A stretch of 64,000 bases of DNA from an uncultured Flavobacteriales bacterium (GTDB lineage: Bacteria; Bacteroidota; Bacteroidia; Flavobacteriales; JBLHRE01), in the NCBI GenBank assembly GCA_937139155.1, contig CAKZPI010000032.1, forward strand, positions 44,969 through 108,968. Reading direction: 5' to 3'. The translations under genes and the position numbers were made by a program. The notes under the pieces are model-generated. The model was not told the origin of the DNA. It ran no database searches and worked only from the letters and a program-made list of their open reading frames with translations. Shown one piece after another: positions 2-45,436 of the stretch. The stretch's first letter is position 1; each line of letters opens with the position of its first letter.

Positions 2-742
2 TTGCTTTATCCAGACATAGACCAATTGATGGAAATCATTGCCAAGCATGAGGTACCCATTGTTTTCACTTCAGCTGGAAATCCAAAAACTTGGACCTCC
101 TTTTTAAAAGAACGGGGCATTACCGTGGTTCATGTGGTTTCCAATGTGAAGTTTGCAAAGAAAGCAGAAGCAGCAGGGGTGGATGCCATTGTTGCGGAAG
201 GCTTTGAAGCAGGCGGACATAATGGGAGAGAAGAGACCACAACCCTTTGCTTGATTCCGATTGTTCGGGAAGCGGTGGATTTACCCTTAATTGCAGCTGG
301 AGGAATTGGTTCAGGAAAAGCCATGCATGCGGCCATTGCTTTGGGTGCCGATGCTGTTCAAGTTGGGTCAAGGTTTGTTACCTCTGAAGAGTCTTCGGCC
401 CATTTGGCCTTTAAAAAAACCGTGGTAGATGCTGAGGAAGGGGCCACCATTTTAACCTTAAAGGAATTGGCTCCCGTTCGGTTGATAAAGAATGGATTTT
501 TCAAAGACCTTCAAGAAGCTTACGCCCGTTGCGCATCTCCAGATGAACTGCGAGAAATTCTGGGAAGAGCACGAGCCAAAAGGGGTATGTTCGAAGGTGA
601 TTTAGAACAAGGAGAACTTGAAATCGGACAGGTTTCTGCCGGAATTCACGAAATCCTTCCCGCCAAGGAAATTGTGAATGAATTCATTCAAGATTTCAAA
701 CATTGCCAAGAGAGAATGGCTAAAATTTCCGCCAGTTTATGA
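2..742 (+). CDS. Nitronate monooxygenase / FabK-like FMN-dependent enoyl-ACP reductase (5' end lies outside the window)
   Basis: The ORF runs from the window edge. It has the TIM-barrel NMO motif 'AAGGIGSGKAMHAAIALGADAVQVGSRF' and 'EAGGH'. Confidence 0.8.
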   Translation: MLYPDIDQLMEIIAKHEVPIVFTSAGNPKTWTSFLKERGITVVHVVSNVKFAKKAEAAGVDAIVAEGFEAGGHNGREETTTLCLIPIVREAVDLPLIAAGGIGSGKAMHAAIALGADAVQVGSRFVTSEESSAHLAFKKTVVDAEEGATILTLKELAPVRLIKNGFFKDLQEAYARCASPDELREILGRARAKRGMFEGDLEQGELEIGQVSAGIHEILPAKEIVNEFIQDFKHCQERMAKISASL

Positions 743-6200: not shown

Positions 6201-6572
6201 GGTGAGTTCTGTTATCAGATAAGAGCGGTAGAGGATAATGGCAATTCTTATAATTTGCTTGGTACTAGTTACTCCAATGAGGCATGTGCCAAGCAAGAAC
6301 CAAGGATTTTTGTACCGAATGCCTTTACGCCCAATGGTAAAAACCCAATTTTCAAACCGAATACAACCTTTGTTGACCCGGCTTTCTATAAGTTCTCGGT
6401 ATTTGACCGTTGGGGACAAGAATTGTTTTATACGGAGGATCCAAACCAGGGATGGGACGGAACCTTTATGGGGGAAGAGCTTCCATTGGCTGTGTATATC
6501 TACTACGTGCAGAGTCAAACCCTTGACGGTGAGCCCATAGAGATAACAGGATCAATTACCCTAATCCGGTAA
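3279..6572 (+). CDS. Large secreted surface protein with a T9SS type-B (gliding motility-associated, CHU_C) C-terminal sorting domain
   Basis: Signal peptide present. N-terminal 'SHLMGGEITWEC' module. C-terminus 'FVPNAFTPNGKNPIFKP...FDRWGQELF...GWDG' matches the type-B CTD. Confidence 0.8.
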   Translation: MIKLFRWVGVALLTLFIVPTNASHLMGGEITWECLPTGQFKFYMSVYRDCNGISGPTTASLDVAGVPGVGSIPLNFLGSSDISPDCYDPNQQITCNTGGDGAVEEFLFESNPVFLNGTPPPTGWWFSWQSCCRNSAITNLQSPGSQGFTLRAGMFPYNGQNMNPCYDSSPSFLEKPNTILCTGYPFEYNNNGADPDLDSLVFSWGQPLDDYTGTFSPNGVNPANLAFQSGYSHSSPLPSSTQDPRNTAATVDPITGNVAYESYTPGNFVTVLKIESYKCGIKVAEIYREIQVILLGNCGQNTPPTVTAPFQDANGNYTEYVDTVYAGETVQFTMSGTDYETLPNGFPQTMQIQASGGQFGNNYTDPNAGCYEPPCATLNPPPPATGQIGVSTTFTWNTDCSNLSYTNGCGSTSNTYNFVIKVLDDWCPAPAINFSSITIVVLTLPVDPPTLRCANLVNGVPSLEWTPAVDTGNFFDSYHVFHSSSYDGPYTVVDSIFDISVSNVNYPSLTGGYFYVQSRNNCGSLTKPSDTISVLELQAQNLTTQVGELSWNSFSEDFTETSHLKYDIYREIPAGSGNWNLATSTLDTFYIDTLALCGEDVGYRVAVEDSSGCSSITNEMILRYEDLIAPAIVDNDFVTVDHGAGNKASIEWGQAPEPDAIGYVIYQLLGGNWVAIDTLFDPSMTVYTNANSNAGSNPETYRIAALDSCYNISPMNLEHTTMHLSNLMDPCANENLLDWNEYVNWPDSVGIYNVLVSENGGPFNLLASTAPTTTELQHNNLVTGNQYCYYIEAFNQDSTLKSYSNQFCFTAALPTPPTFDYLEYVTVLGDQVETRSFVDTAADVTKYRIERAVDQPVGYQYLGVVPVTGPQIDFTDLTAKVNEHSYYYRAIAIDTCGMPTDTSNLGRTILVHTEAQSDMTNIIEWNPYADWDAGVGYYEVYRAVQGVWDPNPIAVLSSSVNAYEDQVGEFSQTSGEFCYQIRAVEDNGNSYNLLGTSYSNEACAKQEPRIFVPNAFTPNGKNPIFKPNTTFVDPAFYKFSVFDRWGQELFYTEDPNQGWDGTFMGEELPLAVYIYYVQSQTLDGEPIEITGSITLIR

Positions 6573-10185: not shown

Positions 10186-11038
10186 ATTGAATAAACATAT
10201 CCTAATTTTCCTTGCGGCACTAAGCTTGGGTTCATGTAAGTACTTTGAGCCTGCAAAAAAAGATAAGCACGTGGCAAGGGTGTACGATAAATATCTAAAT
10301 GCCTCTGACCTTAATGAAGCTTATCCTGGTGATATGCCCAAGGAGGACTCCATTCAGTGGGTACAGGGTTTCATCAACCTCTGGGGGAAAGAGCAGTTGG
10401 TTTTGCAAAAGGCAGAGTTAAACCTTACCGAAGAGCAAAAAGATGTAGAGCAGCAAATTCGCGAGTATAGGAATTCCTTAATTCGACATATTTACGAGCA
10501 AAACCTTGTAAAGCAAAAGCTAGATACCTCAGTTTCTCAATCGGAAATTCGCGATTATTACGAGGAGAACCATCATGTTTTCCCTTTAAGGGAGGGAATT
10601 ATGAGGTCTATTTATGTGGTTGTGGATCAAGGGGCACCTAGGATTGAAGAATTGAGGCAAGCCCTTTATTTACGGCTTCCAGGAGACCTGTATACCTTGG
10701 AAGATTATTGCCGGCAATACGCCAGTAAATACCAACTGAATGACTCCATTTGGATTTCAGTTTCAGATCTAAGAGCGGAGATTCCAGGTTTTGAAATAAA
10801 TCCTAACCCCAGTCGTTTCTACGAACAAAATCCATTGGTAGAATTAGCCGATAGCCAAAAGGTCTATTTCATTCATGTTAAGGAGTATATCCCTGAAGGG
10901 GAGTTGGCTCCCTTGAAATATGTGAGCAATAAAATTCGGGAGATCATAGTTCACCACAGAAAAATAAACCTATTGAAGACCGTAGAAAATTCCTTATTTG
11001 AAGACGCGGTTCGGAAAAATCATTTTGAAATATACTAG
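10175..11038 (+). CDS. Hypothetical lipoprotein (SurA-N/chaperone-like) between two parvulin genes
   Basis: Lipobox 'ALSLGSC'. It overlaps the upstream gene's stop. No catalytic motif recognised. Confidence 0.5.
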   Translation: MHYKLNKHILIFLAALSLGSCKYFEPAKKDKHVARVYDKYLNASDLNEAYPGDMPKEDSIQWVQGFINLWGKEQLVLQKAELNLTEEQKDVEQQIREYRNSLIRHIYEQNLVKQKLDTSVSQSEIRDYYEENHHVFPLREGIMRSIYVVVDQGAPRIEELRQALYLRLPGDLYTLEDYCRQYASKYQLNDSIWISVSDLRAEIPGFEINPNPSRFYEQNPLVELADSQKVYFIHVKEYIPEGELAPLKYVSNKIREIIVHHRKINLLKTVENSLFEDAVRKNHFEIY

Positions 11039-11039
11039 G

Positions 11040-12380
11040 ATGTCCAAACTCTTATTAACTCTCGCAATTTGCTCTAGCTTTCTTTTACAGGCACAACCAA
11101 AGGTGGTTGATGGCGTAATGGCGGTTGTGGGTAATAACATCATCCTTCTTTCGGATATTGAACAACAATATCTTCAAATCAAGGCCCAGGGCTTGCCCAT
11201 GGAAGACAATCTTAAATGTGGATTGTTTAAAGAGCAGCTATTTGAAAAACTTTTACTTCACCAAGCTGCCATTGACTCTGTTGAGGTTACCGAGGATGAG
11301 GTGGGAAGTGTGATTCAACGAAGATTAGATTATTTCATTAGCCAGGTGGGGTCTATTCAAGCATTGGAGTCTTACTACGGAAAAACCATCCCTGAGCTGA
11401 AAGAAGAGCTGAAAAAGCCCATTCGCCAGCAATTGATTGCCCAGAAAATGCAAAATCAAATTTCTGGTGGTCTTCAGGTTAGTCCTAAGGAAGTTGAGGA
11501 GTTTTTTAATGAAATTCCGAAAGACTCCTTACCCTTAATCAATGCAGAGGTTGAAGTAGCTCAAATTGTTAAGAAACCGGTAATTTCGGAGGCAGCAAGA
11601 ACCGAAGCTCGTCAACAATTATTAGAATTTCGCGAAAGGATCCTTAATGGGGAAAATTTTGCATCTCTGGCCATTCTGTATTCAGAAGATCCAGGTTCAG
11701 CACGAAATGGAGGAAAGTATACCGATATACAGCGAGGACAATTTGTGAAAGAATTTGAAGCAGCGGTTTTCGGCCTTGAGCCCATGGAATTGTCGGAAGT
11801 ATTTGAAACGGAATATGGTTTTCATTTGGCTCAGTTGCTCGAACGTCGCGGACAAGTGGTGGATGTTCGGCATATTCTTATCAAACCAGAAATTTCCTCA
11901 GAATCTATTCAAGAGTCGGCCAATTTCCTGGACAGCCTTAGACAAGCCATTCTTGACGGGGACCTTAGTTTTGAAACCGCCGCTTTAGAATACTCTGACG
12001 ATAAACAAACTCAGGCCACCAAAGGAAACTTGATCAATCAAAACACCAGTGATACTAGGTTTGAGGTAGGTCAATTGGATCGAAATGTGTATTTCGCCAT
12101 TGAAAACTTGAATCCGGGTGAGATTTCAAAGCCGGTATTCATGCAGTACCCAGACGGGTCTCAGGCCTATAGAATTATTAAATTGGTGTCAAGAACCGAA
12201 CCCCATAGAGCCAACCTAAAACGAGACTATAGTCGTATTAAGAATGTTGCTTTGGAGCAAAAAAAGCAAAAGGTGATCAATGATTGGGTGGATGAAAAAC
12301 TCAAGGTTACCTTCGTGAAAATTAATTCAGGGTATTTAGATTGTACCTTAGACCCAAAATGGACCCGTACGTATGAGTGA
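11040..12380 (+). CDS. SurA-like peptidyl-prolyl isomerase (parvulin domains)
   Basis: Signal peptide 'MSKLLLTLAICSSFLLQA', SurA-N-like region, and parvulin motifs 'YGFHLAQL' and 'VRHILIK'. I chose the start at ATG 11040. Confidence 0.8.
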   Translation: MSKLLLTLAICSSFLLQAQPKVVDGVMAVVGNNIILLSDIEQQYLQIKAQGLPMEDNLKCGLFKEQLFEKLLLHQAAIDSVEVTEDEVGSVIQRRLDYFISQVGSIQALESYYGKTIPELKEELKKPIRQQLIAQKMQNQISGGLQVSPKEVEEFFNEIPKDSLPLINAEVEVAQIVKKPVISEAARTEARQQLLEFRERILNGENFASLAILYSEDPGSARNGGKYTDIQRGQFVKEFEAAVFGLEPMELSEVFETEYGFHLAQLLERRGQVVDVRHILIKPEISSESIQESANFLDSLRQAILDGDLSFETAALEYSDDKQTQATKGNLINQNTSDTRFEVGQLDRNVYFAIENLNPGEISKPVFMQYPDGSQAYRIIKLVSRTEPHRANLKRDYSRIKNVALEQKKQKVINDWVDEKLKVTFVKINSGYLDCTLDPKWTRTYE

Positions 12381-13341
12381 GAATAGAAATTCGGATGTAG
12401 CAGCTGTAGATCATTTGGTTGAACAGTATAACCAACTCTCAACCGAAATAGCCAAGGTAATTGTTGGCCAACAAGATGTTGTTAAATCCGTGGTTCTATC
12501 CATTTTCTCGAAGGGGCATTGCTTATTGGTAGGGGTGCCAGGTTTGGCAAAGACCCTTTTGGTGAATACCATTGCCCAAACCCTAGGCCTTGACTTCAAC
12601 CGGATTCAGTTTACTCCAGACCTTATGCCTTCAGATATTACGGGCTCTGAGATTCTGGATGAGAATAGACAGTTTAAATTCATTAAAGGCCCTCTTTTTG
12701 CCAATATTGTTTTGGCAGATGAGATCAACCGTACCCCTCCGAAAACACAGGCCGCTCTTTTGGAAGCCATGCAAGAAAAGTCTGTAACCGCTGCAGGAAG
12801 ACATTTCAAACTGCCCAGTCCGTTTTTCGTGCTGGCTACCCAGAACCCCATTGAGCAGGAAGGAACCTATGCTTTGCCAGAGGCCCAGCTAGACCGGTTT
12901 ATGTTTAATATTAAGGTTGATTACCCTAGCTTTCAAGAGGAAGTTGATATTGTGAAGGCTACCACAACCGGGGTAGAGGCAACCGTAAATCAGGTTTTTT
13001 CTGCGGATGAAATTGAAGCTATACAAGCCTTGGTAAGAAGGATTCCAGTTGCAGACAATGTGGTTGAATATGCCGTTAAGCTCACCAATGCAACTCGCCC
13101 GAATACAGAGAATAGCAGTGATTTTGTAAACCAATACATTGGCTGGGGTGCTGGTCCTAGAGCTTCTCAGTTCTTGATTCTCGGAGCAAAGGCTCATGCC
13201 GCAATTCAAGGCAAGTATTCACCAGACATTGAAGATGTTCAAGCCGTAGCAGATTCGGTTCTTCGCCATAGAATTGTGAGAACCTATCGAGCAGAAGCAG
13301 AGGGAGTTAAAGTGGAGGATATCATTAAAGAAATATCATAA
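12373..13341 (+). CDS. MoxR-family AAA+ ATPase
   Basis: Walker A 'GVPGLAKT', Walker B 'VLADEINR', and 'ATQNPIEQEGTY.LPEAQLDRF', typical of the AAA_3/MoxR family. Confidence 0.9.
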   Translation: MSENRNSDVAAVDHLVEQYNQLSTEIAKVIVGQQDVVKSVVLSIFSKGHCLLVGVPGLAKTLLVNTIAQTLGLDFNRIQFTPDLMPSDITGSEILDENRQFKFIKGPLFANIVLADEINRTPPKTQAALLEAMQEKSVTAAGRHFKLPSPFFVLATQNPIEQEGTYALPEAQLDRFMFNIKVDYPSFQEEVDIVKATTTGVEATVNQVFSADEIEAIQALVRRIPVADNVVEYAVKLTNATRPNTENSSDFVNQYIGWGAGPRASQFLILGAKAHAAIQGKYSPDIEDVQAVADSVLRHRIVRTYRAEAEGVKVEDIIKEIS

Positions 13342-13365
13342 TGATCTCCCTTTTTTAATAAGCAT

Positions 13366-13402
13366 AAAAAAAGCCGTCACTTTCTTAAAAGGACGGCTTT
13401 TT
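13366..13402 (+). terminator. Bidirectional intrinsic terminator between moxR and the convergent lipoprotein gene
   Basis: AGCCGTC/GACGGCT stem flanked by an A-run on the 5' side and a T-run on the 3' side. Confidence 0.7.
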
Positions 13403-13502
13403 CTAGTTAGAGTCTAAAATCCGTTTATGGTTCGTCCGTTTCAAAGGTCTGGGTAATTTTCACCATGGTTCCAGGGGCTGAAAAATCTTGAAAAACGTTA
13501 AA

Positions 13503-13901
13503 TCAAGGTTTTCGGGTGTCCAATTCTACAGCCGCGGTAATCGAAAATCCAAAGAGTTCTTGGGTTTGTTGAAGCTCCATTTCATTTCTGGTGATGCTTA
13601 ATACCCAAATGGTGTCCCCTTCCGAAACAATGAGTTGGTCTTCAAAGTTATACTCATAATCTGCAGTAAAGGTTGTATCGCTCTCAGCTTCATATGAATA
13701 AACCTTACCTTGATTAAACTCTATGTACGATCCATCCTTTACCGTGTAGGTGGTGTCAAATGAATCTCCATTTTGATCAATCCATGTTTCGTGCATGGTG
13801 TAATGGTACCACCGGTCTTCTAGCCAACGCTCATGTTGGTTTTCTTTCGAACAGGAAACAAACATTCCTGCCATTAAGATAGCAGCGATAAATAATCTCA
13901 T
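13503..13901 (-). CDS. Small lipocalin-like lipoprotein (paralogue 1)
   Basis: Lipobox 'MFVSCS'. Shares the pattern 'LED.W....DGSY..F......Y.Y' with the neighbouring ORF. Confidence 0.6.
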   Translation of the reverse strand: MRLFIAAILMAGMFVSCSKENQHERWLEDRWYHYTMHETWIDQNGDSFDTTYTVKDGSYIEFNQGKVYSYEAESDTTFTADYEYNFEDQLIVSEGDTIWVLSITRNEMELQQTQELFGFSITAAVELDTRKP

Positions 13902-23349: not shown

Positions 23350-24864
23350 ATGTTACGAAAACTAATTCTTTTACTAAGCCTATTTCTCTATTGGCAAGCC
23401 TCCTATTCGCAAACCTATGTAGATAGCCTTTTGTATCACCCTACCCAGGACCAAGAGTCTATTCAACAAGTTTTTAATATGGGTGATTTTATTGGCATGT
23501 TCATTGGGTATGGATCAACCCTTTCCGGCTGGCATTCTTGGGCCCATTTTGATACCGAAAAGATCAACATGAATCGAATCGGTGGGATATCTCTGTCACA
23601 CGCTCCATTGTTTTATGAGACCTTTCATTACAACGACTCAATCTTGTTAAGGTATTTATGGGATTATGATTTTTGCTTGCACGCCAGCTATCATAGCAAA
23701 ACGAACCTTCGTATAGAGTCAAATAATTGTCCAGTTCGGGGGGGCGAACTCAATTTGATGGAAGGCTTTCTTTACCAAGGTGTTCCAAACATCCCGTTTT
23801 ACAATTACTATAATACTGGTTTACCAGATTATGGATACTTTCAAATTGACTCAACCTGGGGTATTGCGGATACATTTCGTTTTCCAAGTTATTTTACGGA
23901 TTCCAGTGGTTTTCCAAGGACCATAATTAAGGATGAGAAGGACCAAATTGTTGCATTAGCAGATGAAATTAAGATAAACGGGGTTAACCACCTTCAATTC
24001 ATCCGTCTTGACAATAATGGGTGGTTGATAAAAGATACCAGCTTAATTGATTTGAGTCAGTTGCCTTATACCACAAGTGCAAGGGGACCGTTTTATAATA
24101 AATTCCTGATTTCCAAAAACGGTTTGGTTTACTTATCGGTTCGTCACCGTGATGTTCAATCCTTTTTTATTTTCAATGAATCTTTTCAAATTAAAGGAAA
24201 GGCATTAACAATTCCATTAAACTCTCCTTGCCAAAAGCGGTATGTATTAGGCCTTTCACCAAGCCCTAGTCATCCATTGGACTATTTATCCTTGCAGCCC
24301 ATGAAGGATGGTAGCTTTCTGGTTCTTTCTAATTGGGAGATTCATACGTTCCAGCAAAATATGAATCATAAATCTAAATCTTCAATTTGGAAATTTGATT
24401 CCCTGGGTACCCACTTATGGTCAAACTGCATTCCTGTAAATAGCTTTCATCATTATATTCAATTGCGATATGCATTTGAGGTGAATGATTCTACGTATGG
24501 GGTCATCGGAACAGAATACGAGAATATTCATAATGGAACTGACAATAATCCTGCAAGAACTCGAGTACTTTATTTTAACAAAAATGGCGACCCAGGGAAA
24601 GCCTTAACGTCAGAAAGCGAAGTTGATGAATCCCCCGTAATAATTTTCCCTAACCCTGCATCCCATACCTTAAAAATTGAGGCCAATCATGAGGAATTTA
24701 AAGATTTAAATGTACTTGACCCACTTGGGCGAACGGTTTATTTTCAGCCAGTTAGGCCCAGTATGACGATAGATTTAAGTGGGTGGGCAAGGGGTATATA
24801 TTACCTTAACTTTATTGGCGAAACTGGGCATTATATTGTAAAGACTGTACTAGTTGTTGATTAG
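23350..24864 (+). CDS. Secreted protein of unknown function with a T9SS type-A C-terminal sorting domain
   Basis: Signal peptide present. C-terminus 'IFPNPASHTLKIE....LDPLGRTVY......IDLSGWARGIYYLNF' matches the Por_Secre_tail pattern. Confidence 0.75.
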   Translation: MLRKLILLLSLFLYWQASYSQTYVDSLLYHPTQDQESIQQVFNMGDFIGMFIGYGSTLSGWHSWAHFDTEKINMNRIGGISLSHAPLFYETFHYNDSILLRYLWDYDFCLHASYHSKTNLRIESNNCPVRGGELNLMEGFLYQGVPNIPFYNYYNTGLPDYGYFQIDSTWGIADTFRFPSYFTDSSGFPRTIIKDEKDQIVALADEIKINGVNHLQFIRLDNNGWLIKDTSLIDLSQLPYTTSARGPFYNKFLISKNGLVYLSVRHRDVQSFFIFNESFQIKGKALTIPLNSPCQKRYVLGLSPSPSHPLDYLSLQPMKDGSFLVLSNWEIHTFQQNMNHKSKSSIWKFDSLGTHLWSNCIPVNSFHHYIQLRYAFEVNDSTYGVIGTEYENIHNGTDNNPARTRVLYFNKNGDPGKALTSESEVDESPVIIFPNPASHTLKIEANHEEFKDLNVLDPLGRTVYFQPVRPSMTIDLSGWARGIYYLNFIGETGHYIVKTVLVVD

Positions 24865-27582: not shown

Positions 27583-27591
27583 CTTTGCCGG

Positions 27592-27931
27592 GCATGTAGC
27601 TTGTCGCCCGCCTTAGGTGGGAGGAAAGTCCGGGCAGCAAAGGACAGCCTGCTTCCTAACGGGAAGGCTTAATTATTTTAAGGAGTACTGCAGAAGAAAA
27701 TAACCGTCCGCCTCAGGCGGATAAGGGTGAGAAGGTGGGGTAAGGGCCCACCAGCAATGTGGTGACATATTGGCTGTGCAGCTCAGGCGCTGAAATGCCA
27801 TGTATACCTCGGGTTGAAAGCGGTCCGCTTGATCAGTTTACTGAACCGGGGAGGGTAGGCAGATGGATCCATAGGGTGACTTATGGGCTAGATAAATGAC
27901 AGGCCTTGACAGAATCCGGCTTATCGCATGC
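27592..27931 (+). ncRNA. rnpB: RNase P RNA, bacterial type A
   Basis: Universally conserved 'GAGGAAAGTCCGGGC', 'AAGGGTGAGAAGGTGGGGTAAGGGCCCACC' and 'ACAGAATCCGGCTTATCG'. P1 pairing GCATG/CATGC. The ends are accurate to about +/-5 nt. Confidence 0.9.
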
Positions 27932-27939
27932 AAAGAATT

Positions 27940-27970
27940 AGGGGTCGCTCATTGGGCGGCCTCTTTTTTT
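27940..27970 (+). terminator. Intrinsic terminator of rnpB; the hairpin encloses the stop codon of the convergent histidine kinase gene
   Basis: 9-bp stem AGGGGTCGC/GCGGCCTCT (two G-U pairs), 7-nt loop, then T7. Confidence 0.6.
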
Positions 27971-29205
27971 GGAATGGTGAATTGAAAGGTTGAGCCTTTG
28001 CCCAGTTCAGATTTAACCCAAATTTCTCCATTGTGTTTTTCAATGATTCGTTTTATAAGGGCTAGGCCTACACCTGAGCTTTCTTCCAAAGCCATATCAC
28101 TTAAAATCTTTCCGAATCTAAAGAGCTGGCTTTGCTGCTCTGGGCTCAGTCCAATGCCATTGTCTTTGATTTTAATGTGGTACGAATTTTCCAATTCGTC
28201 CAAGGTGATTTTCACCTTTTTTATCTCACTTGAATTATACTTAACGGCATTGGTGAGCAAGTTTTGAAAAACAGTTTGAAGCTCTGAGGGGTTGAAAGTT
28301 ACTTCCGTTTCCTCAAAATCAAGTTTAATTTTTACGTCCTCTTTAAACTGTAAATAGTTTAGGAGTTTTTCAAGGAAAGCTTTGATTTCAAGGGTTTCAG
28401 TTTCGGCTGTTTTACCTGCAGCTTTTGAGAAATTCAATACTTGATTAATGAAGTCTTTCATTTTATTGCTTTGTTCCTCAATCATTTGAGAGAACTTCTC
28501 AAGCTTTAATTTGTTTTGTTCTTCTTTAACAAAGGCGGCAAGGATTAAAATATTGTTCAAAGGGGCTTTAAGGTCATGAGCTACAAGGTTTGCAAAGTCT
28601 TGGATTTCTTGGTTTCTAGCCGCTAATTCTTCCGTTTTTTTACGGAGGTTTTCATTGGCCTTAATCAAGGCCTTCTGTTGTTGTTTAATCTCCTTGTAAG
28701 CCGCGGTTAACTCTTGGTTGTTTTCCTTGACAATATCCAGGTAGTTATTGGTTTCGGCCTTCATTTTATTCAGCCATTCTACCAGGGTTTCTGGGTCAAT
28801 TTCTATGGCTACAGGAAGAACTATTCCAATTTTAACTTTTGTGCCTTCCTTTCCTGTTTCAATTTCGAAGGAATCACAAAGCCGTTTGGCGCCTCTAAGT
28901 CCTAGGCCCAAGCCAGAGCTGCTCTTATAGTTTCCAGAGAGAATTTCAGAGAGGTTTTCAATTCCTGGTCCGTGGTCTTGAACAATGGCCACAAGCTCCT
29001 GTGGTGCTTCTTCGGTAATGTAGAAGGTGATTTCTCCAGAGTTTCCGTATTTAATCACGTTCCTCACCAATTCAGAAATAGCTGTGGTAAACTTTGAGGT
29101 GTCTTGTTTGCTGAGTTGACATAATTCAGCCAAGGTACTTACCCTTCTTCGAATAATGCCAGAATCAGATTCATGGTTGATTTGAATTTCCTTTATATAA
29201 ATCAT
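27949..29205 (-). CDS. Histidine kinase with an N-terminal RsbT/RsbW-like GHKL domain, a coiled coil, HisKA and HATPase_c
   Basis: N-terminal boxes 'ELVRNVIKYG', 'DHGPGI' and 'GLGLGLRGAKRL'. H-box 'VAHDLKAPL' (His210). C-terminal 'NLLTNAVKYN', 'DNGIGL' and 'GVGLALIKRIIE.HNG'. Confidence 0.85.
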   Translation of the reverse strand: MIYIKEIQINHESDSGIIRRRVSTLAELCQLSKQDTSKFTTAISELVRNVIKYGNSGEITFYITEEAPQELVAIVQDHGPGIENLSEILSGNYKSSSGLGLGLRGAKRLCDSFEIETGKEGTKVKIGIVLPVAIEIDPETLVEWLNKMKAETNNYLDIVKENNQELTAAYKEIKQQQKALIKANENLRKKTEELAARNQEIQDFANLVAHDLKAPLNNILILAAFVKEEQNKLKLEKFSQMIEEQSNKMKDFINQVLNFSKAAGKTAETETLEIKAFLEKLLNYLQFKEDVKIKLDFEETEVTFNPSELQTVFQNLLTNAVKYNSSEIKKVKITLDELENSYHIKIKDNGIGLSPEQQSQLFRFGKILSDMALEESSGVGLALIKRIIEKHNGEIWVKSELGKGSTFQFTIPKKEAAQ

Positions 29206-30221
29206 AGGTCATTCTTTATGATTAATATGGAGGCATCATCCGTGTTTCGAATCTTTTTATGCATTAGATAGGCTGCAATTACTGGACTTTCTTTTCCGTA
29301 AAGTTCAGAAGGGAAGTCTTTGGAGGTTACATTTGAAAGACCATCCGAATGTAAAACTAGGATGGCCCCTTTAGGAAAGGGCAGAATTTGTGGTTTTGGA
29401 AGGTTTTGGTCTTTACCAAAAAGCCCAGATTTACTAATAAGGTGCTTCGGTTTTTCCCCATATTGGTAGATTGCGGCTTGAACATTTCCCATCCCGAAAA
29501 AAGTAAGCTCCTCTTTTTCATGATGGATTTCCCCAAAGCCTAAAACGCCTCCTCTTTTAGCATTGGCTTCCTGAAACATTCCCTCCCAAAGAGACTCTGG
29601 GGAAAGGTTAAAATTTCTTCGAAAATAATTTCCCACGGAAGTGGATGAATCAGCGGCTTCACTTCCATGACCTAACCCATCCATTAATAAGAAATGGGTT
29701 TCCTCCTTTGTTTCTTCAATTCCAGTCCAATCACCAGACGTTTTTTGACCAGGAATCGCAAAATTGATCCAATGGTGGTCGAAATGGCTTAAAGGTTTTT
29801 TAGGTGCGTCTTTGTTTTTTAATTGGGCGTAGAAGCATGTAAAATCACCTGGAATGGAGGCGAAAATAAGTTTAGAGCTAAACCTTTTTATGGCCCCGAG
29901 TCCGCTACCCGAAGACCCACCGGTAGAATAACCATCTTCAAAGCTCTTGGTGAAGTTTTTAATCCCGGGTCCCTGATCGTAGGCCATGATTTCTATAAAA
30001 CCTGAAAGGCCTGAAAACCTGAAAATAATTTCCCCGCCTCCTGCGTACTTTACTAGGTTACTTCCTAGTTCAGTAATAACAAGTTTGGCTTCGGCTAGGG
30101 TAAGAGGTGTGAAATATGGTAAGTCTTTAAACCCATCGATTTCCCTTCTGGCTACTCCCACATCTGTTTGAGCCTTTATCTTAAACCGGAGGAAATTATG
30201 TGGCAAGGTAAATTTCACCAT
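29202..30221 (-). CDS. RsbT/RsbW-like GHKL domain fused to a PP2C (SpoIIE-type) phosphatase; sits in the RsbX position
   Basis: N-terminal 'ELGSNLVKYAGGG', 'DQGPGI' and 'GSGLGAIKR'. C-terminal PP2C motifs 'LMDGLGHG' and 'VLHSDGL'. ATGA overlap with the downstream gene. Confidence 0.8.
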   Translation of the reverse strand: MVKFTLPHNFLRFKIKAQTDVGVARREIDGFKDLPYFTPLTLAEAKLVITELGSNLVKYAGGGEIIFRFSGLSGFIEIMAYDQGPGIKNFTKSFEDGYSTGGSSGSGLGAIKRFSSKLIFASIPGDFTCFYAQLKNKDAPKKPLSHFDHHWINFAIPGQKTSGDWTGIEETKEETHFLLMDGLGHGSEAADSSTSVGNYFRRNFNLSPESLWEGMFQEANAKRGGVLGFGEIHHEKEELTFFGMGNVQAAIYQYGEKPKHLISKSGLFGKDQNLPKPQILPFPKGAILVLHSDGLSNVTSKDFPSELYGKESPVIAAYLMHKKIRNTDDASILIIKNDL

Positions 30222-30622
30222 TGAGCAATTCTAATTTCTGTTCCATTTCGGCATTCAAGAACTTCAAATTCAGCACAAAGCCTTTTCGCTCCTGGAAGAC
30301 CTAGGCCTAAACTACCCCCGGTTGAAAAACCATCTTTTAAGGCAGATTCAATTTCTGCAATTCCGGGTCCTTGATCCTTGAAAGTTGCCTGAATTTTACC
30401 CTTGCCTTTAGGGCCTATAGATTCCGAAAAAACCACAGTTCCAGAGCCTGCATGGTTGAGCATATTTCTACCCAATTCACTCACGGCAGTTATGAACTTT
30501 GTAATGGCCAATGGGCCTAAACCAAGTTTTTTAGAGAGTTCTTTTGCTTGCCTTCTGGCCTCTGCTAGGTCGCGTTCAGTATTAATTTCCTGAAAGATTT
30601 CCTCCATGGCTTGGGTCTTCAT
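30215..30622 (-). CDS. rsbT: RsbT-like serine/threonine kinase (stressosome switch kinase)
   Basis: Alignable by eye to B. subtilis RsbT: 'ITAVSELGRNML.HAG', 'DQGPGI', 'DGFSTGGSLGLGLPGAKRL' and 'GTEI...W'. Confidence 0.85.
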   Translation of the reverse strand: MKTQAMEEIFQEINTERDLAEARRQAKELSKKLGLGPLAITKFITAVSELGRNMLNHAGSGTVVFSESIGPKGKGKIQATFKDQGPGIAEIESALKDGFSTGGSLGLGLPGAKRLCAEFEVLECRNGTEIRIAQW

Positions 30623-31007
30623 CTAAGTCAATGTCTTCTTGGGCAGCCTCCGAATTAATTTCGTCTTGCAGCAGCTTCATCCCAAGGTTCATGTTTATGG
30701 CGGTTTGAATGTTTTTCAATTCCATTCCAAGCTCAACAAGGGTAATAGCTACAGCTGGCTGCATACCAACAACTACAGTTTTTGCCCCCATAATTTTACT
30801 TACTTCAGAAACCATTCCTAAGACCCTTCCAATGTAGGTGTCTACCATGTCAAGGGCCGAAATATCTATAAGCACTCCTTTTGCGGAGGATTTGCTCAGC
30901 CTATTGCCCATTTCTTCTTGGAACTGGTTTGCAACCGTATCATAAATGTCTCCTTGAAGGCTTACAACGAGAATTTCATTGAATTCTAATATGGGTATTC
31001 TCTCCAT
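30582..31007 (-). CDS. rsbS: RsbS-like single STAS-domain stressosome scaffold protein
   Basis: 'IPIL......LVVSLQ', 'VLIDISALDMVDTYI' and 'MGAKTVVVGMQPAVAITLVELG' closely parallel B. subtilis RsbS. Thr57 sits at the position of the phospho-acceptor Ser59. Confidence 0.9.
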   Translation of the reverse strand: MERIPILEFNEILVVSLQGDIYDTVANQFQEEMGNRLSKSSAKGVLIDISALDMVDTYIGRVLGMVSEVSKIMGAKTVVVGMQPAVAITLVELGMELKNIQTAINMNLGMKLLQDEINSEAAQEDIDLDEDPSHGGNLSGN

Positions 31008-31008
31008 T

Positions 31009-31881
31009 TTACTGGGTCTTTTTAGCCACTACTTCAAGGCCAAGGTTATTGAGGGCTGTGTGAAGGGCATCGGCCATAGATGCCTTGGTTTGGCTATGCT
31101 CATCAAGAGAAACTCCAAGCCCAACCATGGTAGTGGCAATTTCAGGGCGGATTCCAGAGATGATGCATTTTCCACCCATAAGGCGTATGGCAGAAGTGGT
31201 TTTAATGATGTGCTGAGCGGTCATGGTATCAACCGTTGGAACCCCAGAAATGTCGATGATTACATTTCGGTATCCTGTTTCAACAATTTCTTGAAGGATG
31301 TTTTCCATGAGTTGTTGAGCACGCATTGAGTCTAAGGTTCCAACAATGGGAAGGGTTAAAATCCCGTTCCAAACCTTGATTACGGGGGTAGACAACTCCA
31401 TGATTTCAGACTGCTGAGCCCGAATAATTTCATCTCGTTCCTGAACAAAAGACTCAACCACCATTATGCTAAGTTCCTCGGCCAGTTTATTAAAACCCAT
31501 CATGTCTTCTTGGTAGGGCTCGGTTTCTTCCGGTTTATGCTTTTCCCCAACCACAATGAAAAAAGCGAGTCGCCAGCCCAGTACATATCGGGCGGTGTCT
31601 CCTGGGCTAAACCCTTGAACCACCCTTTTCTTTGCGAAGTCTTGAACAATTTGTTCAAGTTGGCTGGATTCATTTCCAATGATTTTTTGAAAGGAGTTCA
31701 CCGAACTTATATCTTCCAAAACGGCATCATAAAATGCCCCACATTCTTCAATAAAGTCATCCTTCCGCCTACCGAGCTTCCCTTGGTGCAACTCCAATTG
31801 CTCCTGGGTCCACTTTTCTAAAATTTCAGAACGGTAATCTTCCAAATACTTTACAACGATATTCTTTTTTTTAGCGCACAT
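31009..31881 (-). CDS. rsbR: RsbR-like stressosome sensor: N-terminal RsbR-type (globin-fold-like) domain plus C-terminal STAS
   Basis: STAS motifs 'LTLPIVGTLDSMRAQ' and 'IIDISGVPTVDTMTAQHII'. Ser185/Thr219 are 34 residues apart, the same spacing as RsbRA Thr171/Thr205. Confidence 0.85.
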   Translation of the reverse strand: MCAKKKNIVVKYLEDYRSEILEKWTQEQLELHQGKLGRRKDDFIEECGAFYDAVLEDISSVNSFQKIIGNESSQLEQIVQDFAKKRVVQGFSPGDTARYVLGWRLAFFIVVGEKHKPEETEPYQEDMMGFNKLAEELSIMVVESFVQERDEIIRAQQSEIMELSTPVIKVWNGILTLPIVGTLDSMRAQQLMENILQEIVETGYRNVIIDISGVPTVDTMTAQHIIKTTSAIRLMGGKCIISGIRPEIATTMVGLGVSLDEHSQTKASMADALHTALNNLGLEVVAKKTQ

Positions 31882-31955
31882 GGTACTGATGTTTTAGAAG
31901 GGTAAGGTAGAAAATTAAATCAACCAATGGTTGAATGACCCTTCGGATTGGAAAC

Positions 31956-31990
31956 AAAAAAAAGGCAAACCTGATTAGGCCTGCCTTTTT
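31956..31990 (-). terminator. Intrinsic terminator between tRNA-Pro and the rsbR operon (symmetrical, possibly bidirectional)
   Basis: Hairpin GGCAAACCT/AGGCCTGCC (7 of 9 positions pair; two adjacent internal mismatches) flanked by A8 and T5. Read on the minus strand it is followed by T8. Confidence 0.65.
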
Positions 31991-31994
31991 GAAG

Positions 31995-32067
31995 TCGAGG
32001 TGACAGGACTTGAACCTGCGACCCCACGCCCCCCAGACGTGTACTCTACCAACTGAGCTACACCTCG
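31995..32067 (-). tRNA. tRNA-Pro (anticodon GGG)
   Basis: Hand-folded cloverleaf: acceptor CGAGGTG/CACCTCG, D-arm GCTC-AGTTGGTA-GAGT, anticodon arm CACGT-CTGGGGG-GCGTG, T-arm GCAGG-TTCAAGT-CCTGT, discriminator A. No encoded CCA. Confidence 0.9.
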
Positions 32068-35444: not shown

Positions 35445-36395
35445 ATGGAACATGTAAAATGTTTGATCATAGGCTCGGGCCCTGCAGGATATACCGCAGC
35501 AATCTACGCCGCCCGTGCTGATTTAAGTCCGGTTATGTACACAGGTATGGAGCCTGGCGGACAACTTACTCAAACCACCGAGGTTGAGAACTACCCGGGT
35601 TATCCTGACGGAGTTCAAGGTCCGGCCATGATGGAAGACTTTAAGAAACAAGCTGAACGTTTCGGTACCGATGTTCGTTTTGGTTATGCATCTTCGGTGA
35701 ATTTTTCAAAAGATGGCTCTGAACCCCACCAAGTAACCTTTGATGAATCGGTAACTGTTTCTGCGGATACGGTAATTATTTCTACCGGAGCCTCCGCCAA
35801 GTGGCTAGGTCTGGAAAGCGAGAAAAGACTTAACGGTCATGGGGTTTCAGCCTGTGCTGTTTGCGATGGATTTTTCTTCAAAAACCAAGAAGTGGTAATT
35901 GTAGGAGCAGGAGATACTGCCTGTGAAGAGGCCTCTTATTTGGCAAAGCTTTGTACCAAAGTTACCATGTTGGTGCGTAGAGAGGAGTTTAGAGCTTCTA
36001 AAGCCATGCAACACCGTGTTGAAAATACCAAGAACATTGAAATTCTTTACAATACAGAAACCAAAGAGGTTCTTGGAGAGAAGGCCGTAGAAGGGGTTAA
36101 AGTATTTAACAATCAAACCGGAGAAGAGAAGGTGATTCCTGCTACTGGCTTCTTTGTGGCCATAGGTCATAAACCCAATACTGATCTTTTTAAAGGTGTA
36201 TTGCCCATGGATGAGGTTGGCTACTTGAAAGTTGAAGAACCAAGCTCTAGAACAGGCATTCCAGGGGTGTTTGCTTCAGGAGATGTCATGGATTCAATTT
36301 ACCGTCAGGCCGTAACAGCCGCCGGAACGGGTTGTAGAGCAGCGCTTGATGCGGAAAGGTACTTAGCCGCAAAAGAAACGGCGGTTGAGGCTTAA
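35445..36395 (+). CDS. trxB: Thioredoxin-disulfide reductase
   Basis: FAD motif 'IIGSGPAGYTAA', redox-active 'CAVCDG' and NADPH motif 'VVGAGDTACEEA'. Confidence 0.9.
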   Translation: MEHVKCLIIGSGPAGYTAAIYAARADLSPVMYTGMEPGGQLTQTTEVENYPGYPDGVQGPAMMEDFKKQAERFGTDVRFGYASSVNFSKDGSEPHQVTFDESVTVSADTVIISTGASAKWLGLESEKRLNGHGVSACAVCDGFFFKNQEVVIVGAGDTACEEASYLAKLCTKVTMLVRREEFRASKAMQHRVENTKNIEILYNTETKEVLGEKAVEGVKVFNNQTGEEKVIPATGFFVAIGHKPNTDLFKGVLPMDEVGYLKVEEPSSRTGIPGVFASGDVMDSIYRQAVTAAGTGCRAALDAERYLAAKETAVEA

Positions 36396-36564: not shown

Positions 36565-37035
36565 ATGTCAACAAATCGTATCGGAATTGATTCCGCGAAA
36601 GCTGAAAAACTTGCGGAAGAACTAAACTCCTTACTCTCAACCTATCAAGTTCATTATCAAAATCTCAGAGGTTTTCATTGGAACATAAAAGGAAACCAAT
36701 TTTTTGAACTTCACCTTAAGTTTGAAGAGCTCTACAACGATGCCCAAGTTAAAATTGACGAAATCGCCGAAAGGATTCTAACCTTGGGCCATAGACCCTT
36801 ACATTCCTTTAGTGCTTATTTAGACGCATCCAAGGTAAAACCAGTTATGGACCTTAGCGATGGACAGCAAACCATAGAAACGGTCTTGGCTGACTTGAAG
36901 GTGATTCTTCAAATAGAAAGAGGAATGCTTGAACTTGCGTCCGAAGCTGAAGATGAGGGAACCCTAACCCTGGTTACCGATTACATCACCCAGCAAGAAA
37001 AGCTAATTTGGATGCTTTCTTCATACCTAGGTTAA
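36565..37035 (+). CDS. dps: Dps-family DNA-protection/ferritin-like protein
   Basis: 'LN.LL......Y.NLRGFHWN..G..F..LH..FEE.Y' ferroxidase-site pattern. Confidence 0.85.
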   Translation: MSTNRIGIDSAKAEKLAEELNSLLSTYQVHYQNLRGFHWNIKGNQFFELHLKFEELYNDAQVKIDEIAERILTLGHRPLHSFSAYLDASKVKPVMDLSDGQQTIETVLADLKVILQIERGMLELASEAEDEGTLTLVTDYITQQEKLIWMLSSYLG

Positions 37036-39270: not shown

Positions 39271-40113
39271 ATGCAAAATCCGCCGAAGAAAATGTTTCAA
39301 AGGGTAGCAACTGCGCTTGCTTTTTCCCCAAGACTAGAAGCCAATTTATGCGAAGGAATACGTGTAGCTCAATACTTCAATGCTGAATTGGTATTGATAC
39401 ATGTGGGGGATCAAGACGCCGACAAAAAACGAATTCTAGACGGCCTTTTAGCAGATCATTCTTTTCCTGAAAACCGACTGAAAATTGTTTGGCATAAAGG
39501 AGACCCGGTAAAGGTGATTTCCAGGGCTTGCAAGGTTCATGAGGTAGATTTACTAGTTGCTGGAGCGGTACAAAATGAAAACCTACTTACCTATTATTTA
39601 GGTTCAGTGGCTCGTGATTTATGCCGGGAAGCTCCTTGTTCAATTTTGCTTTTGGTAAATCCAGCAACCGAGAGTGTGAAATTTCACACCATGGTGGTAG
39701 ACGGAAAACAACATCCAGAAGATAAACAGCTAATCAAAGCAGCCATGGCTTTTGGTCAGGCCATTGGCATCAAAGAGTCCTTCTTTGTTGAAGAGTTAAA
39801 ACCCAAAGCCGTTAAAGAACTTTCCAATGAAGCGGAGGAGGATGACCCTATCGCCATGGAAAACGAAAGAGTAAGCAAAATGCTTGACGGCATGAACGAT
39901 TGCCGAGAAATGGAAATTAACAATTTCCCCATTTTCGGTCAGGGCGGATACACCATTTCCCATTTCGCGCAAAGCAAAAGGGCAGATTTACTAGTGCTTC
40001 ACGCCCCTGAAAAAAAGCAGGCCCGATTAAATCGTTTTTTCACTCGAGGAATAGAATATGTTTTAACTGACCTTCCAACCAATTTACTACTGTATAAAAA
40101 CCACGCTGAATGA
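39271..40113 (+). CDS. Tandem universal stress protein (UspA-family) domain protein
   Basis: 280 aa, the size of two Usp domains. 'DLLV.GA......L....LGSVA..L...A.CS.LL' motif. Confidence 0.7.
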   Translation: MQNPPKKMFQRVATALAFSPRLEANLCEGIRVAQYFNAELVLIHVGDQDADKKRILDGLLADHSFPENRLKIVWHKGDPVKVISRACKVHEVDLLVAGAVQNENLLTYYLGSVARDLCREAPCSILLLVNPATESVKFHTMVVDGKQHPEDKQLIKAAMAFGQAIGIKESFFVEELKPKAVKELSNEAEEDDPIAMENERVSKMLDGMNDCREMEINNFPIFGQGGYTISHFAQSKRADLLVLHAPEKKQARLNRFFTRGIEYVLTDLPTNLLLYKNHAE

Positions 40114-44045: not shown

Positions 44046-44987
44046 ATGAGAACAAATATCATTCGCCCTTTTTTAATGGCCTTCCTGATTCTTGGTCTAT
44101 TTACCAATTGGGGCTTCTTTGGTCATGAAACCATTCATGAAAAGGCGGTTTATTCCCTGCCAAAGGAAATGTGGCCCCTTTACAAAGAGCATATTGCCAT
44201 TTTGATTGAGAAGTCAACCAACCCCGATAAAAGGCGGCATTTCTCAAAAAAAGAACCTCCCAAGCATTATATTGATTTAGATGCTTTTCGGGTAAACCCA
44301 AAAACGGTTTTCCCCGCCAATTGGGATTCAGCAAAATCATTTCTAACCGAAGATACCCTCTGGGCATATGGGGTGCTTCCCTGGAATATTGAATGGGTTT
44401 ATTACGATTTGGTAGAAGCCTTCGACTCAAATGATGCACAGGCAATTCTAAGGCTTAGTGCAGATCTGGGCCATTATATTTCTGACGCTTGCGTTCCTTT
44501 GCATACCACGGTTAACTACAATGGGCAATTAACAAATCAACGAGGAATTCACGGGTTTTGGGAGTCTAGGTTGCCCGAATTATTTGCGGAGGAATATTTC
44601 TTGTACCCTGGCCAGGCTGAGTACATTCACAACCGTCAAGAGTATATTTGGGCAATCATCTTTGAAAGCTTTTCGGCCAAGGATTCGGTACTTGACTTAG
44701 ATAAGAAGGTTCAAGAGGCTTTCGCCGATGAAGGAACCCAGTCTATTTCTGAGCGGAAAGGGCAGGGGGTCAGAACTCAGTCAATTGAGGCCTCAAGGGC
44801 TTACCATGAAGCATTGAATGGCATGGTTGAAAGAAGGATGAGGCGGTCAATAAAGGCCGTGGCTGATTTCTGGTTTACCGCCTGGGTAGATGCAGGTCAA
44901 CCCAATTTGAAAAACCTGGAGCTTGAAAAGGATGGGGAAACAAAGTTTTTTGGAGAGAAAGTTCTAGAGAAGCTTTGGGGAAATTAA
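44046..44987 (+). CDS. Zinc-dependent phospholipase C / S1-P1 nuclease superfamily protein
   Basis: After the signal sequence, 'WGFFGHETI', like the N-terminal Trp/His zinc ligands of this superfamily. Later 'H..D...PLH'. I chose the start at ATG 44046. Confidence 0.55.
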   Translation: MRTNIIRPFLMAFLILGLFTNWGFFGHETIHEKAVYSLPKEMWPLYKEHIAILIEKSTNPDKRRHFSKKEPPKHYIDLDAFRVNPKTVFPANWDSAKSFLTEDTLWAYGVLPWNIEWVYYDLVEAFDSNDAQAILRLSADLGHYISDACVPLHTTVNYNGQLTNQRGIHGFWESRLPELFAEEYFLYPGQAEYIHNRQEYIWAIIFESFSAKDSVLDLDKKVQEAFADEGTQSISERKGQGVRTQSIEASRAYHEALNGMVERRMRRSIKAVADFWFTAWVDAGQPNLKNLELEKDGETKFFGEKVLEKLWGN

Positions 44988-45436
44988 TCCTTAATCAAAT
45001 GGGGGAAGTGTTTTTTCACAATTTCCCGGAAAGCGGTAACCGTGAGGGGTTTATTATAAAACCCAGACAATTCTTTTTCTTCTGAACGTTCCCGATCGTC
45101 AGGATTTAAAGAAACGGTAAGCATCATGACCACCACCTTTGCTTTTTCCTCGGGCGGAAGGAGGTCGTATTCTTCCATGAACTCCCAACCATTCATGCCC
45201 GGCATATTTATGTCAAGCAAAATTAGGTCGGGTTGCCGCTCATCATTTCTATGGTTAAACTTTAAAAAGGTTAAAGCGTCTTTTCCGGAAAGAACGGAAA
45301 CAACTCTACTTACAAGTCCGCTTCGTTTTACAACCTTTTTATGCAAGAAATTATCAGCCTCGTTATCGTCAACGAGCAATACATGAAGTCTTTCGTTTGT
45401 CTCTAGTCCAGGCTCAAATTCTGGGAGGGTGTTCAT
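44984..45436 (-). CDS. Stand-alone response-regulator receiver domain protein
   Basis: 'VLLVDDNEAD', phospho-acceptor 'LILLDINMPGMNG' and 'KPL'. No output domain. Confidence 0.85.
   Translation of the reverse strand: MNTLPEFEPGLETNERLHVLLVDDNEADNFLHKKVVKRSGLVSRVVSVLSGKDALTFLKFNHRNDERQPDLILLDINMPGMNGWEFMEEYDLLPPEEKAKVVVMMLTVSLNPDDRERSEEKELSGFYNKPLTVTAFREIVKKHFPHLIKD

Follow-up and report, generated by a model that had tools for sequence, protein, structure and literature searches.

Stressosomes are built on a core of RsbR and RsbS, a pseudo-icosahedral particle of roughly 1.5-1.8 MDa that sequesters RsbT. They are found in many phyla, and very little has been learned about what they sense and control outside the Firmicutes. 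Here, a five-gene operon of this kind is described from a 64,000-nucleotide stretch of DNA (the window) of an uncultured Flavobacteriales bacterium (GenBank assembly GCA_937139155.1, contig CAKZPI010000032.1, positions 44,969 to 108,968 of the forward strand). The operon encodes homologues of RsbR, RsbS and RsbT (R, S and T), a phosphatase with an additional RsbT-like domain (gene 4, X) and a histidine kinase headed by a third such domain (gene 5, K), and it probably represents a self-contained minimal stressosome with a two-component output, the kinase being that output.

Several systems of related design have been described. It has been recognized by comparative genomics since 2005 that rsbRSTX modules lacking sigB occur in bacteria including Bacteroidetes and can be coupled to HisKA/REC proteins (PMC9237108, on the authority of Pane-Farre 2005). 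The modules found downstream of RSTX are of the PP2C, cyclic di-GMP (c-di-GMP) or HisKA/REC type, and most stressosome-linked downstream proteins and kinases are devoid of RsbU_N, their coupling being left unexplained (PMC9237108). In RsbU, coiled-coil linkers carry the input from RsbT, and the same has been proposed for histidine kinase and GGDEF outputs (PMC12143880); histidine kinases with RsbU_N are present in stressosome operons of Proteobacteria (PMC9237108; PMC12143880, Fig. 5E). The original prediction, a reading of the window made without database searches, had stated that outputs other than sigma-B had been noted for RsbRST modules by comparative genomics and that the system in Bacteroidota is experimentally uncharacterised, which agrees with the searchable literature. 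The general kind of system has been published, and this locus adds nothing categorically new. In the searchable literature, the comparative figures of 2005 excepted, no paper was found in which RsbX or an output kinase is shown to bear an RsbT-like domain.

The first three genes of the operon had been proposed to encode RsbR, RsbS and RsbT, and this placement held in hidden Markov model searches with Pfam, in matches of R and S to solved chains in PDB and in a direct comparison of T with RsbT. In R, Pfam detects RsbRD_N (50.5 bits) and STAS (63.4 bits), and the protein matches the solved RsbR chains of Vibrio vulnificus (8e-33) and Listeria (6e-31). The alignment to the haem-globin RsbR of Vibrio involves the linker and STAS domain alone, from residue 120 onwards; because the N-terminal domain matches RsbRD_N, R is assigned to the Bacillus non-haem type. 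S is a single STAS domain (Pfam, 48.6 bits) with an acidic, poorly conserved C-terminal tail, and aligns over its whole length with the solved RsbS of Bacillus subtilis (1e-29) and Listeria (9e-29). T scores above the Pfam cut-off for HATPase_c_2 (33.6 bits) and shares 42% identity over 124 residues with B. subtilis RsbT (96 bits), compared with 18 bits for RsbW, a comparison to be treated with caution. A phmmer search of T against PDB sequences returned no relevant match and one spurious match to a designed repeat protein, and no NCBIfam model placed T.

The predicted phospho-acceptors are also present and line up with the acceptor columns of the Listeria and B. subtilis proteins, as had been claimed. 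Ser185 and Thr219 of R occupy the positions of RsbRA T171 and T205, the former being Ser in 82 of 82 homologues and the latter Thr in 71 and Ser in 11. Thr57 of S lies at the position of RsbS Ser59 ('DMVDT' aligned with 'DMIDS'), a column occupied by Thr in just two of 82 homologues, those of the window and of its closest relative (locus L003, 7212-7637), and by Ser in the other 80. Together with the adjacent RsbX-type PP2C protein, these predicted RsbR-, RsbS- and RsbT-type proteins supply the sequence features of a stressosome module.

RsbT-like GHKL domains occur in T, X and K, and their relationships were examined by clustering, on an identity matrix, the GHKL domains taken from 83 related loci (82 of class T, 76 of class X-N from the phosphatase and 58 of class K-N from the kinase). 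The nearest neighbour of every sequence belonged to its own class. Mean identity was 0.57 within T, 0.49 within K and 0.43 within X, and 0.34 for T-K, 0.28 for T-X and 0.24 for X-K, so that class K-N lies nearer to class T (34%) than X-N does (28%). The reference sequence of B. subtilis RsbT showed 0.43 identity to class T, 0.35 to K-N and 0.28 to X-N, and that of RsbW about 0.22 to all three. Given the nearest-neighbour relationships and these mean identities, the classes are three old, separately conserved RsbT-like lineages and not recent duplicates; judged by their sequences, free T and the N-terminal domains of RsbX and the kinase are ancient paralogues of the RsbT type. The three domains of the window can be aligned with one another, and each retains the Glu/Asn of the N-box, the DxGxG of G1 and the glycines of G2.

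Gene 4 had been read as an output of the system (a 'phosphatase fusion'), which is not borne out by either the profile or the fold of its PP2C half. Pfam recognizes SpoIIE/PP2C in X at 31.1 bits, and HATPase_c_2 in its N-terminal half at 22.6 bits, under the cut-off of 27.4; against a profile of its own family, the N-terminal GHKL domain scores 141 bits. With a profile built from 35 homologues of gene 4, Moorella MtX (3zt9) was matched at 1.4e-29, B. subtilis RsbX (3w40) at 2.1e-27 and SpoIIE at about 1e-11, and SpoIIAB and RsbW were matched by the N-terminal half at about 5e-4. By searching the AlphaFold model of X (predicted local distance difference test, pLDDT, 88.9, and about 90 in the N-terminal half; predicted template modelling score, pTM, 0.88) with Foldseek, RsbX 3w40 was retrieved first (TM 0.81) and MtX 3zt9 second (TM 0.79). 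The metal-binding motifs of the PP2C half (G163-D164, D181-GLGHG, S292-D293-G and D328-D329) are invariant in homologues, as are, in the 35 homologues, the N-box E51/N55, G1 D82xGxG and G2 G105xGxG of the N-terminal half, which shares 33% identity (59 bits) with the RsbT reference sequence. Since RsbX and MtX are the closest counterparts of the PP2C half in profile as well as in fold, gene 4 would be the reset phosphatase and the operon would read as rsbRSTX plus a kinase. On its sequence and predicted structure, gene 4 is an RsbX-type feedback phosphatase at the canonical position after T, not an output, and it carries an extra N-terminal domain that is absent from the solved RsbX and MtX chains (about 195 residues).

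The GHKL-RsbX family to which gene 4 belongs is large, with more than 5,700 word-index matches, some of which are named by NCBI as 'ATP-binding SpoIIE family protein phosphatase'. In a library of 50%-identity representatives, 302 matches were obtained at E <= 1e-30, and those listed are all full-length proteins of about 330-350 aa. The gene is split into two open reading frames (ORFs) in an Acidobacteriota metagenome-assembled genome (MAG; L020, 9760-10783), and rsbR is split in an alphaproteobacterial MAG (L034, 2672-3553); each may reflect a frameshift, a pseudogene or an assembly error.

Three Pfam domains were detected in K, namely HATPase_c_2 (residues 18-126, 65 bits), HisKA (202-262, 38 bits) and HATPase_c (306-414, 131.7 bits), with no receiver (REC), transmembrane or other sensor domain. 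The N-domain shares 33% identity (70 bits) with the RsbT reference sequence, and E12, D14, R48, N49, D77xGxG and G102 are invariant in its homologues. The remainder has the predicted make-up of a HisKA-class kinase, a DHp domain with a conserved His and, after it, a CA domain; the H-box His210 is invariant among homologues, and the N, G1 and G2 boxes of the CA domain are complete. In the AlphaFold model, a helix at 138-152 is followed by one continuous helix at 155-228 that runs through His210 (DHp alpha-1), by DHp alpha-2 at 232-262 and by the HATPase_c domain at 270-412, with the N-box at 315, G1 at 348 and G2 at 378. With the RsbT-like domain as the sole candidate for an input, the arrangement is that of a sensor kinase with a signalling helix. 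The joining of a GHKL domain to His210 by a long helix in this model suggests a direct stressosome-to-kinase coupling without an RsbU_N adaptor. The linker between GHKL and DHp measures 82-84 residues in 48 of 64 homologues, which fits a register-sensitive coiled coil, and is about 22 residues shorter than this usual length in the window and its closest relative.

To place the operon in a wider context, an RsbS-profile scan was carried out on one genome per GTDB species, and the resulting loci (at least 80, the window's own genome not among them) were annotated with profiles made in this analysis; the counts below describe this cassette family, not all stressosomes. About 70 loci, representing at least 10 phyla, extend far enough downstream to be judged, and nearly all of them keep the order R, S, T, GHKL-PP2C and GHKL-histidine kinase (with or without REC); 57 loci contain two STAS, three GHKL and one PP2C protein, no more and no fewer. 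The cassette occurs in Nostoc, Calothrix and other Cyanobacteria, Acidobacteriota, Myxococcota, Alphaproteobacteria, Gemmatimonadota, Deinococcota, Verrucomicrobiota and Oligoflexales and, within the Bacteroidota, in Pontibacter, Rufibacter, Nibribacter, Cesiribacter, Hymenobacteraceae, Chitinophaga, Segetibacter, Emticicia and Huijunlia. Thus, the rarity or Bacteroidota specificity implied by the original prediction has to be given up, and the locus is, as far as its predicted gene content goes, a typical member of a large multi-phylum cassette family.

Variation within the family mainly concerns the kinase and its REC partners. The K of most phyla has one or two REC domains of its own, and a REC-histidine kinase(-REC) gene comes next. 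In Hymenobacteraceae-type loci, K is REC-less (about 446 aa), like that of the window, and is adjoined directly downstream by a convergent gene for a REC protein of about 140 aa (Table 1). These convergent genes, from Pontibacter, Rufibacter, Nibribacter and Hymenobacteraceae, share 55-83% mutual identity and likely encode the cognate regulator in those genomes; in the window, no such gene is present at that position. Chitinophaga-type loci have a longer K, and small REC genes flank the cassette. In Pseudomonas (L006, L008, L009, L010 and L012; about 10700-13570), R-S-T-(GHKL-RsbX) is followed by a kinase of about 300 aa without the RsbT-like N-domain and then by a REC protein of about 650 aa.

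Components of a sigma-B cascade were searched for in the window and in the related loci. No RsbU_N was detected in any of the five proteins (Pfam, E <= 0.01), no other STAS, RsbT-like GHKL or RsbX-like PP2C domain in any window ORF of 50 aa or more, and no sigma factor by Pfam among 20 further window ORFs. Within 9 kb on either side of the cassette in the 83 related loci, no RsbV, RsbW or sigma factor was found, sigma factors being sought with a SigB seed sequence that extracytoplasmic function (ECF) sigmas would escape. In the flanks of 15 Bacteroidota loci, Response_reg was the only recurrent Pfam family (15 of 115 proteins), and no sigma, STAS or HATPase_c_2 family recurred. The statement that RsbU_N, RsbV, RsbW and sigma-B are missing from the window is therefore upheld by the Pfam and ORF scans, and neither there nor in the scanned flanks was the module accompanied by RsbV, RsbW and a group-3 sigma factor, an arrangement that would have pointed to a conventional partner-switching cascade.

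Based on these findings, a course of signalling can be proposed. Because the gene order is so widely kept across phyla, the kinase is considered a functional partner of the module, and REC domains on or after K in most phyla, along with Response_reg in the Bacteroidota flanks, argue for a two-component output. RsbR would act as co-antagonist, RsbS as scaffold and RsbT as switch kinase. If the systems of Bacillus, Listeria, Moorella and Vibrio are a guide, R and S would assemble via their STAS domains into a large core holding RsbT; on signal, RsbT would phosphorylate Ser185/Thr219 of R and Thr57 of S and then be released, and the product of gene 4 would strip these phosphates and reset the complex. 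The RsbT-like domain of the kinase might dock on the STAS core like RsbT or pair with released RsbT, and the change might pass along the continuous helix 155-228 to His210, switching autophosphorylation, after which a single-domain response regulator encoded elsewhere would receive the phosphoryl group. The RsbT-like domain of X could target or gate the phosphatase at the stressosome. More tentatively, the core may be a docking platform for three RsbT-fold clients (RsbT, RsbX and the kinase) that share or compete for STAS sites. If true, the state of the stressosome could be relayed into a His-Asp phosphorelay without an RsbU_N adaptor, which would explain the signalling of many RSTX modules without RsbU_N-bearing partners; no description of this model was found in the searchable literature.

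Several points weigh against the reading of the operon as a stressosome with a kinase output. The megadalton assembly, the activity of RsbT, the specificity of RsbX and the contact between kinase and stressosome are all inferred, and the intact ATP motifs of the three GHKL domains fit active Ser/Thr kinases as well as they fit docking modules. The AlphaFold model of K has a pTM of 0.40 and was built from a shallow alignment of 8 sequences, the comparison with the B. subtilis RsbT and RsbW references calls for caution, and the loci, being the best matches to this type of RsbS, form a sample biased to this cassette. The kinase of the Pseudomonas loci, lacking the RsbT-like domain, indicates that this domain is not indispensable for coupling. 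Moreover, no REC domain was found in or beside the operon of the window, and thus no adjacent or fused cognate regulator; the only REC protein in the 64 kb (150 aa, Pfam Response_reg 56 bits) is encoded 16 kb from the kinase. When this protein was examined as a possible cognate regulator, its identity to the K-flanking REC proteins of Hymenobacteraceae, 30-34%, proved generic, so that it is a candidate partner only.

SpoIIAB and RsbW form GHKL homodimers, and the RsbT-like domain of the kinase, without ever touching the stressosome, could in a similar way receive released RsbT, in a GHKL-GHKL heterodimer analogous to the RsbU_N interaction, or else RsbT could phosphorylate the kinase on Ser/Thr. 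Of the two fused classes, K-N resembles free RsbT most (34% mean identity), as would be expected of a pairing partner, and there is a precedent in RsbU, where RsbT orders a coiled-coil linker (PMC12143880) such as K also has. However, this analysis yielded no evidence of GHKL heterodimers, no VvRsbT-VvD1 interaction was found by Heinz et al. (the domain composition of the VvD1 N-terminus not being established), and Pseudomonas kinases of the same cassette do without the domain. A coupling of this kind alone is rather unlikely.

It is unlikely that the GHKL-PP2C protein is the true output, acting in an RsbU-like manner on an unlinked STAS or other phosphoprotein, with the kinase as a separate or secondary branch. 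A regulatory domain N-terminal to PP2C is formally reminiscent of RsbU (RsbU_N plus PP2C), the pTM of 0.88 implies a fixed domain arrangement, and PP2C outputs exist in some stressosome loci, such as that of Methylomicrobium (PMC9237108); yet the PP2C half is nearest to RsbX/MtX in sequence and fold and has the same small size of about 190 residues, X directly follows T in every annotated locus, and no third STAS substrate was found in the window or the 83 loci. A conventional partner-switching cascade, with the sigma factor and RsbV/RsbW encoded outside the 64-kb window and the kinase as an unrelated neighbour, is very improbable. The view is limited to 64 kb of the genome, and ECF-type sigmas in the related loci would have been missed by the SigB seed, but the kinase overlaps gene 4 by 4 nt in a position conserved in at least 10 phyla, its N-domain is an RsbT paralogue, no sigma, STAS or HATPase_c_2 family recurred in the 15 Bacteroidota flanks, and no sigma factor appeared in the 20 window ORFs. 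The stressosome with the kinase as its output remains the preferred reading.

The layout of the operon agrees with that first reported, five packed minus-strand ORFs at 27949-31881 being reproduced exactly in the ORF listing, and an independent gene caller drew the same five genes on a public contig with five identical proteins. R and S are 1 nt apart, and S/T, T/X and X/K overlap by 41, 7 and 4 nt as ORFs; of these overlaps, that of S/T is probably 26 nt instead of 41, since the closest homologue of T begins at the equivalent of Met6. With this spacer and these overlaps, a tRNA terminator on one side and the convergent rnpB on the other, the five genes are one transcription unit, and its promoter must lie in the 77-nt leader between the tRNA hairpin and rsbR. 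A scan for sigma-70-type promoters, whose consensus is not applicable to Bacteroidota, gave nothing above shuffled expectation. At the other end, a terminator-like hairpin of rnpB (27940-27964) overlaps the last codons of the kinase, the ORF of which ends at 27949.

Table 1. Coordinates of the operon, of its parts and surroundings in the window, and of features in related loci
Locus	Feature	Position	Strand	Remarks
Window	rsbR homologue (R)	31009-31881	-	290 aa
Window	R domains	residues 11-106; 166-258		RsbRD_N / non-haem-globin type; linker helix; C-terminal STAS
Window	rsbS homologue (S)	30582-31007	-	141 aa
Window	rsbT homologue (T)	30215-30622	-	135 aa; probable true start Met6 at 30607
Window	T motifs	N-box E49..N53; G1 box D83xGxG; G2 box GLGLGLPG		predicted stand-alone GHKL Ser/Thr switch kinase
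Window	gene 4, GHKL+PP2C (X)	29202-30221	-	339 aa
Window	X N-half, RsbT-like GHKL (class X-N)	29820-30221	-	residues 1-134
Window	X C-half, RsbX-type PP2C	29202-29786	-	residues 146-339, about 190 residues
Window	gene 5, GHKL+HisKA/HATPase kinase (K)	27949-29205	-	418 aa
Window	K N-domain, third RsbT-like GHKL (class K-N)	28819-29205	-	residues 1-129; sensor position
Window	K remainder, DHp + CA	27949-28818	-	from Pfam and AlphaFold secondary structure
Window	operon upstream region	31882-31990	-	tRNA-Pro hairpin, then 77-nt leader
Window	tRNA-Pro terminator hairpin	31959-31990	-	strong; 77 nt before rsbR start codon
Window	tRNA-Pro(GGG)	31994-32067	-	upstream boundary
Window	RNase P RNA (rnpB), class A	27588-27939	+	Rfam RF00010, 196.6 bits, full length; convergent on kinase gene
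Window	REC protein	44984-45436	-	only REC protein in the window
Window	thioredoxin reductase	35445-36395	+	
Window	Dps/ferritin-like protein	36565-37035	+	
Window	Usp-domain protein	39271-40113	+	
Window	Por_Secre_tail protein	23350-24864	+	504 aa
L003	tRNA-Pro(GGG)	6152-6225		flank of cassette
L003	rnpB	10285-10652		flank of cassette
L029	convergent REC gene	12262-12702	-	
L040	convergent REC gene	12235-12654	-	
L050	convergent REC gene	12269-12715	-	
L061	convergent REC gene	12345-12785	-	
L067	convergent REC gene	12263-12697	-	
L076	convergent REC gene	12255-12680	-	
L080	convergent REC gene	12251-12718	-	

The cassette was found at the same site, between tRNA-Pro(GGG) and rnpB, in one close relative (L003) alone. 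Identity between the window and this relative is 42% for X, 49% for K and 65% for S, compared with 75% for the housekeeping PGM (phosphoglucomutase/phosphomannomutase family); by this measure, the cassette proteins have diverged much more than PGM. No other homologue of X exceeds 36% identity, those with organism names coming from other phyla, and no Flavobacteriales are among the best 80 GTDB loci. Considering the single close relative, the low identity of the other X homologues and this absence, the cassette looks rare and patchy in the Flavobacteriales. The PGM of the window is 65-66% identical to proteins from Vicingaceae (Flavobacteriales) and Bacteroidia MAGs, which places the source in the Bacteroidota, with a probable relationship to Flavobacteriales. 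In the PGM neighbourhoods of two relatives at 66-67% identity, synteny was not conserved and the cassette was absent from the 10 kb around the gene.

With regard to the surroundings, genes for a thioredoxin reductase, a Dps/ferritin-like protein and a Usp-domain protein are located 4-8 kb upstream of the operon, and L003 likewise has a thioredoxin-reductase and a Usp gene close to its cassette. Elsewhere, the window encodes a protein with a C-terminal Por_Secre_tail, a sorting domain of type IX secretion, in support of its Bacteroidota origin.

Among the commonest relatives of this operon, the cassette of five genes is fixed, and its predicted reset phosphatase and output kinase each carry an RsbT paralogue; this triple-RsbT architecture may offer a concrete, testable route to how non-sigma-B stressosomes address two-component systems. 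Cultivable hosts of the cassette are available in Pontibacter, Rufibacter, Nostoc and Pseudomonas, and the Pseudomonas variant could show whether the RsbT-like domain of the kinase is needed for coupling. For the organism of the window, the operon marks one soluble, presumably stress-linked kinase.

Among the systems described to date, the rsbR-S-T-U-V-W-sigB-rsbX operons of B. subtilis and Listeria resemble the locus in RsbR/S/T homology, in the acceptor positions and in an RsbX-type PP2C. In contrast, the window is without RsbU, RsbV, RsbW and sigma-B, its predicted output is a histidine kinase, its RsbX directly follows RsbT and has an extra RsbT-like domain, and its RsbS acceptor is Thr instead of Ser. 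The rsbRSTX clusters of V. vulnificus and V. brasiliensis with VvD1/VvD2 (PMC9237108, PMC4976288, PMC10014275) are likewise sigB-less RSTX modules with a sensor kinase shortly downstream and no RsbU_N. On the other hand, Vibrio RsbR is a haem globin sensor, the Vibrio output also includes c-di-GMP enzymes, and the RsbX of globin-type clusters is described as single-domain, whereas the kinase of the window is small, REC-less and led by an RsbT-like domain.

The MtR-MtS-MtT-MtX-MtG module of Moorella thermoacetica (Quin et al. 2012, as reported in PMC12143880) is similar in having a non-sigma RSTX output, and the PP2C half of gene 4 has its best match by sequence, and its second-best by fold, in MtX (3zt9). 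However, according to the account in PMC12143880, the output of Moorella is a GGDEF cyclase with an RsbU_N that binds MtT, and the deposited MtX chain, 193 residues long and without a GHKL domain, is matched by the PP2C half of the profile alone. The RsbU_N histidine kinases of Proteobacteria share the principle of a stressosome operon that feeds a kinase via an N-terminal adaptor and a coiled-coil linker, the putative adaptor in the window being an RsbT-like GHKL domain and not the four-helix RsbU_N. Finally, Rv1364c of Mycobacterium tuberculosis (PAS-PP2C-GHKL-STAS, 3ke6), which was among the profile and fold matches, also combines PP2C with an anti-sigma-type GHKL domain in one polypeptide, but its domain order is reversed, its PP2C is RsbU-like, and it is a sigma-tied, self-contained partner-switch without an R-S-T cassette.

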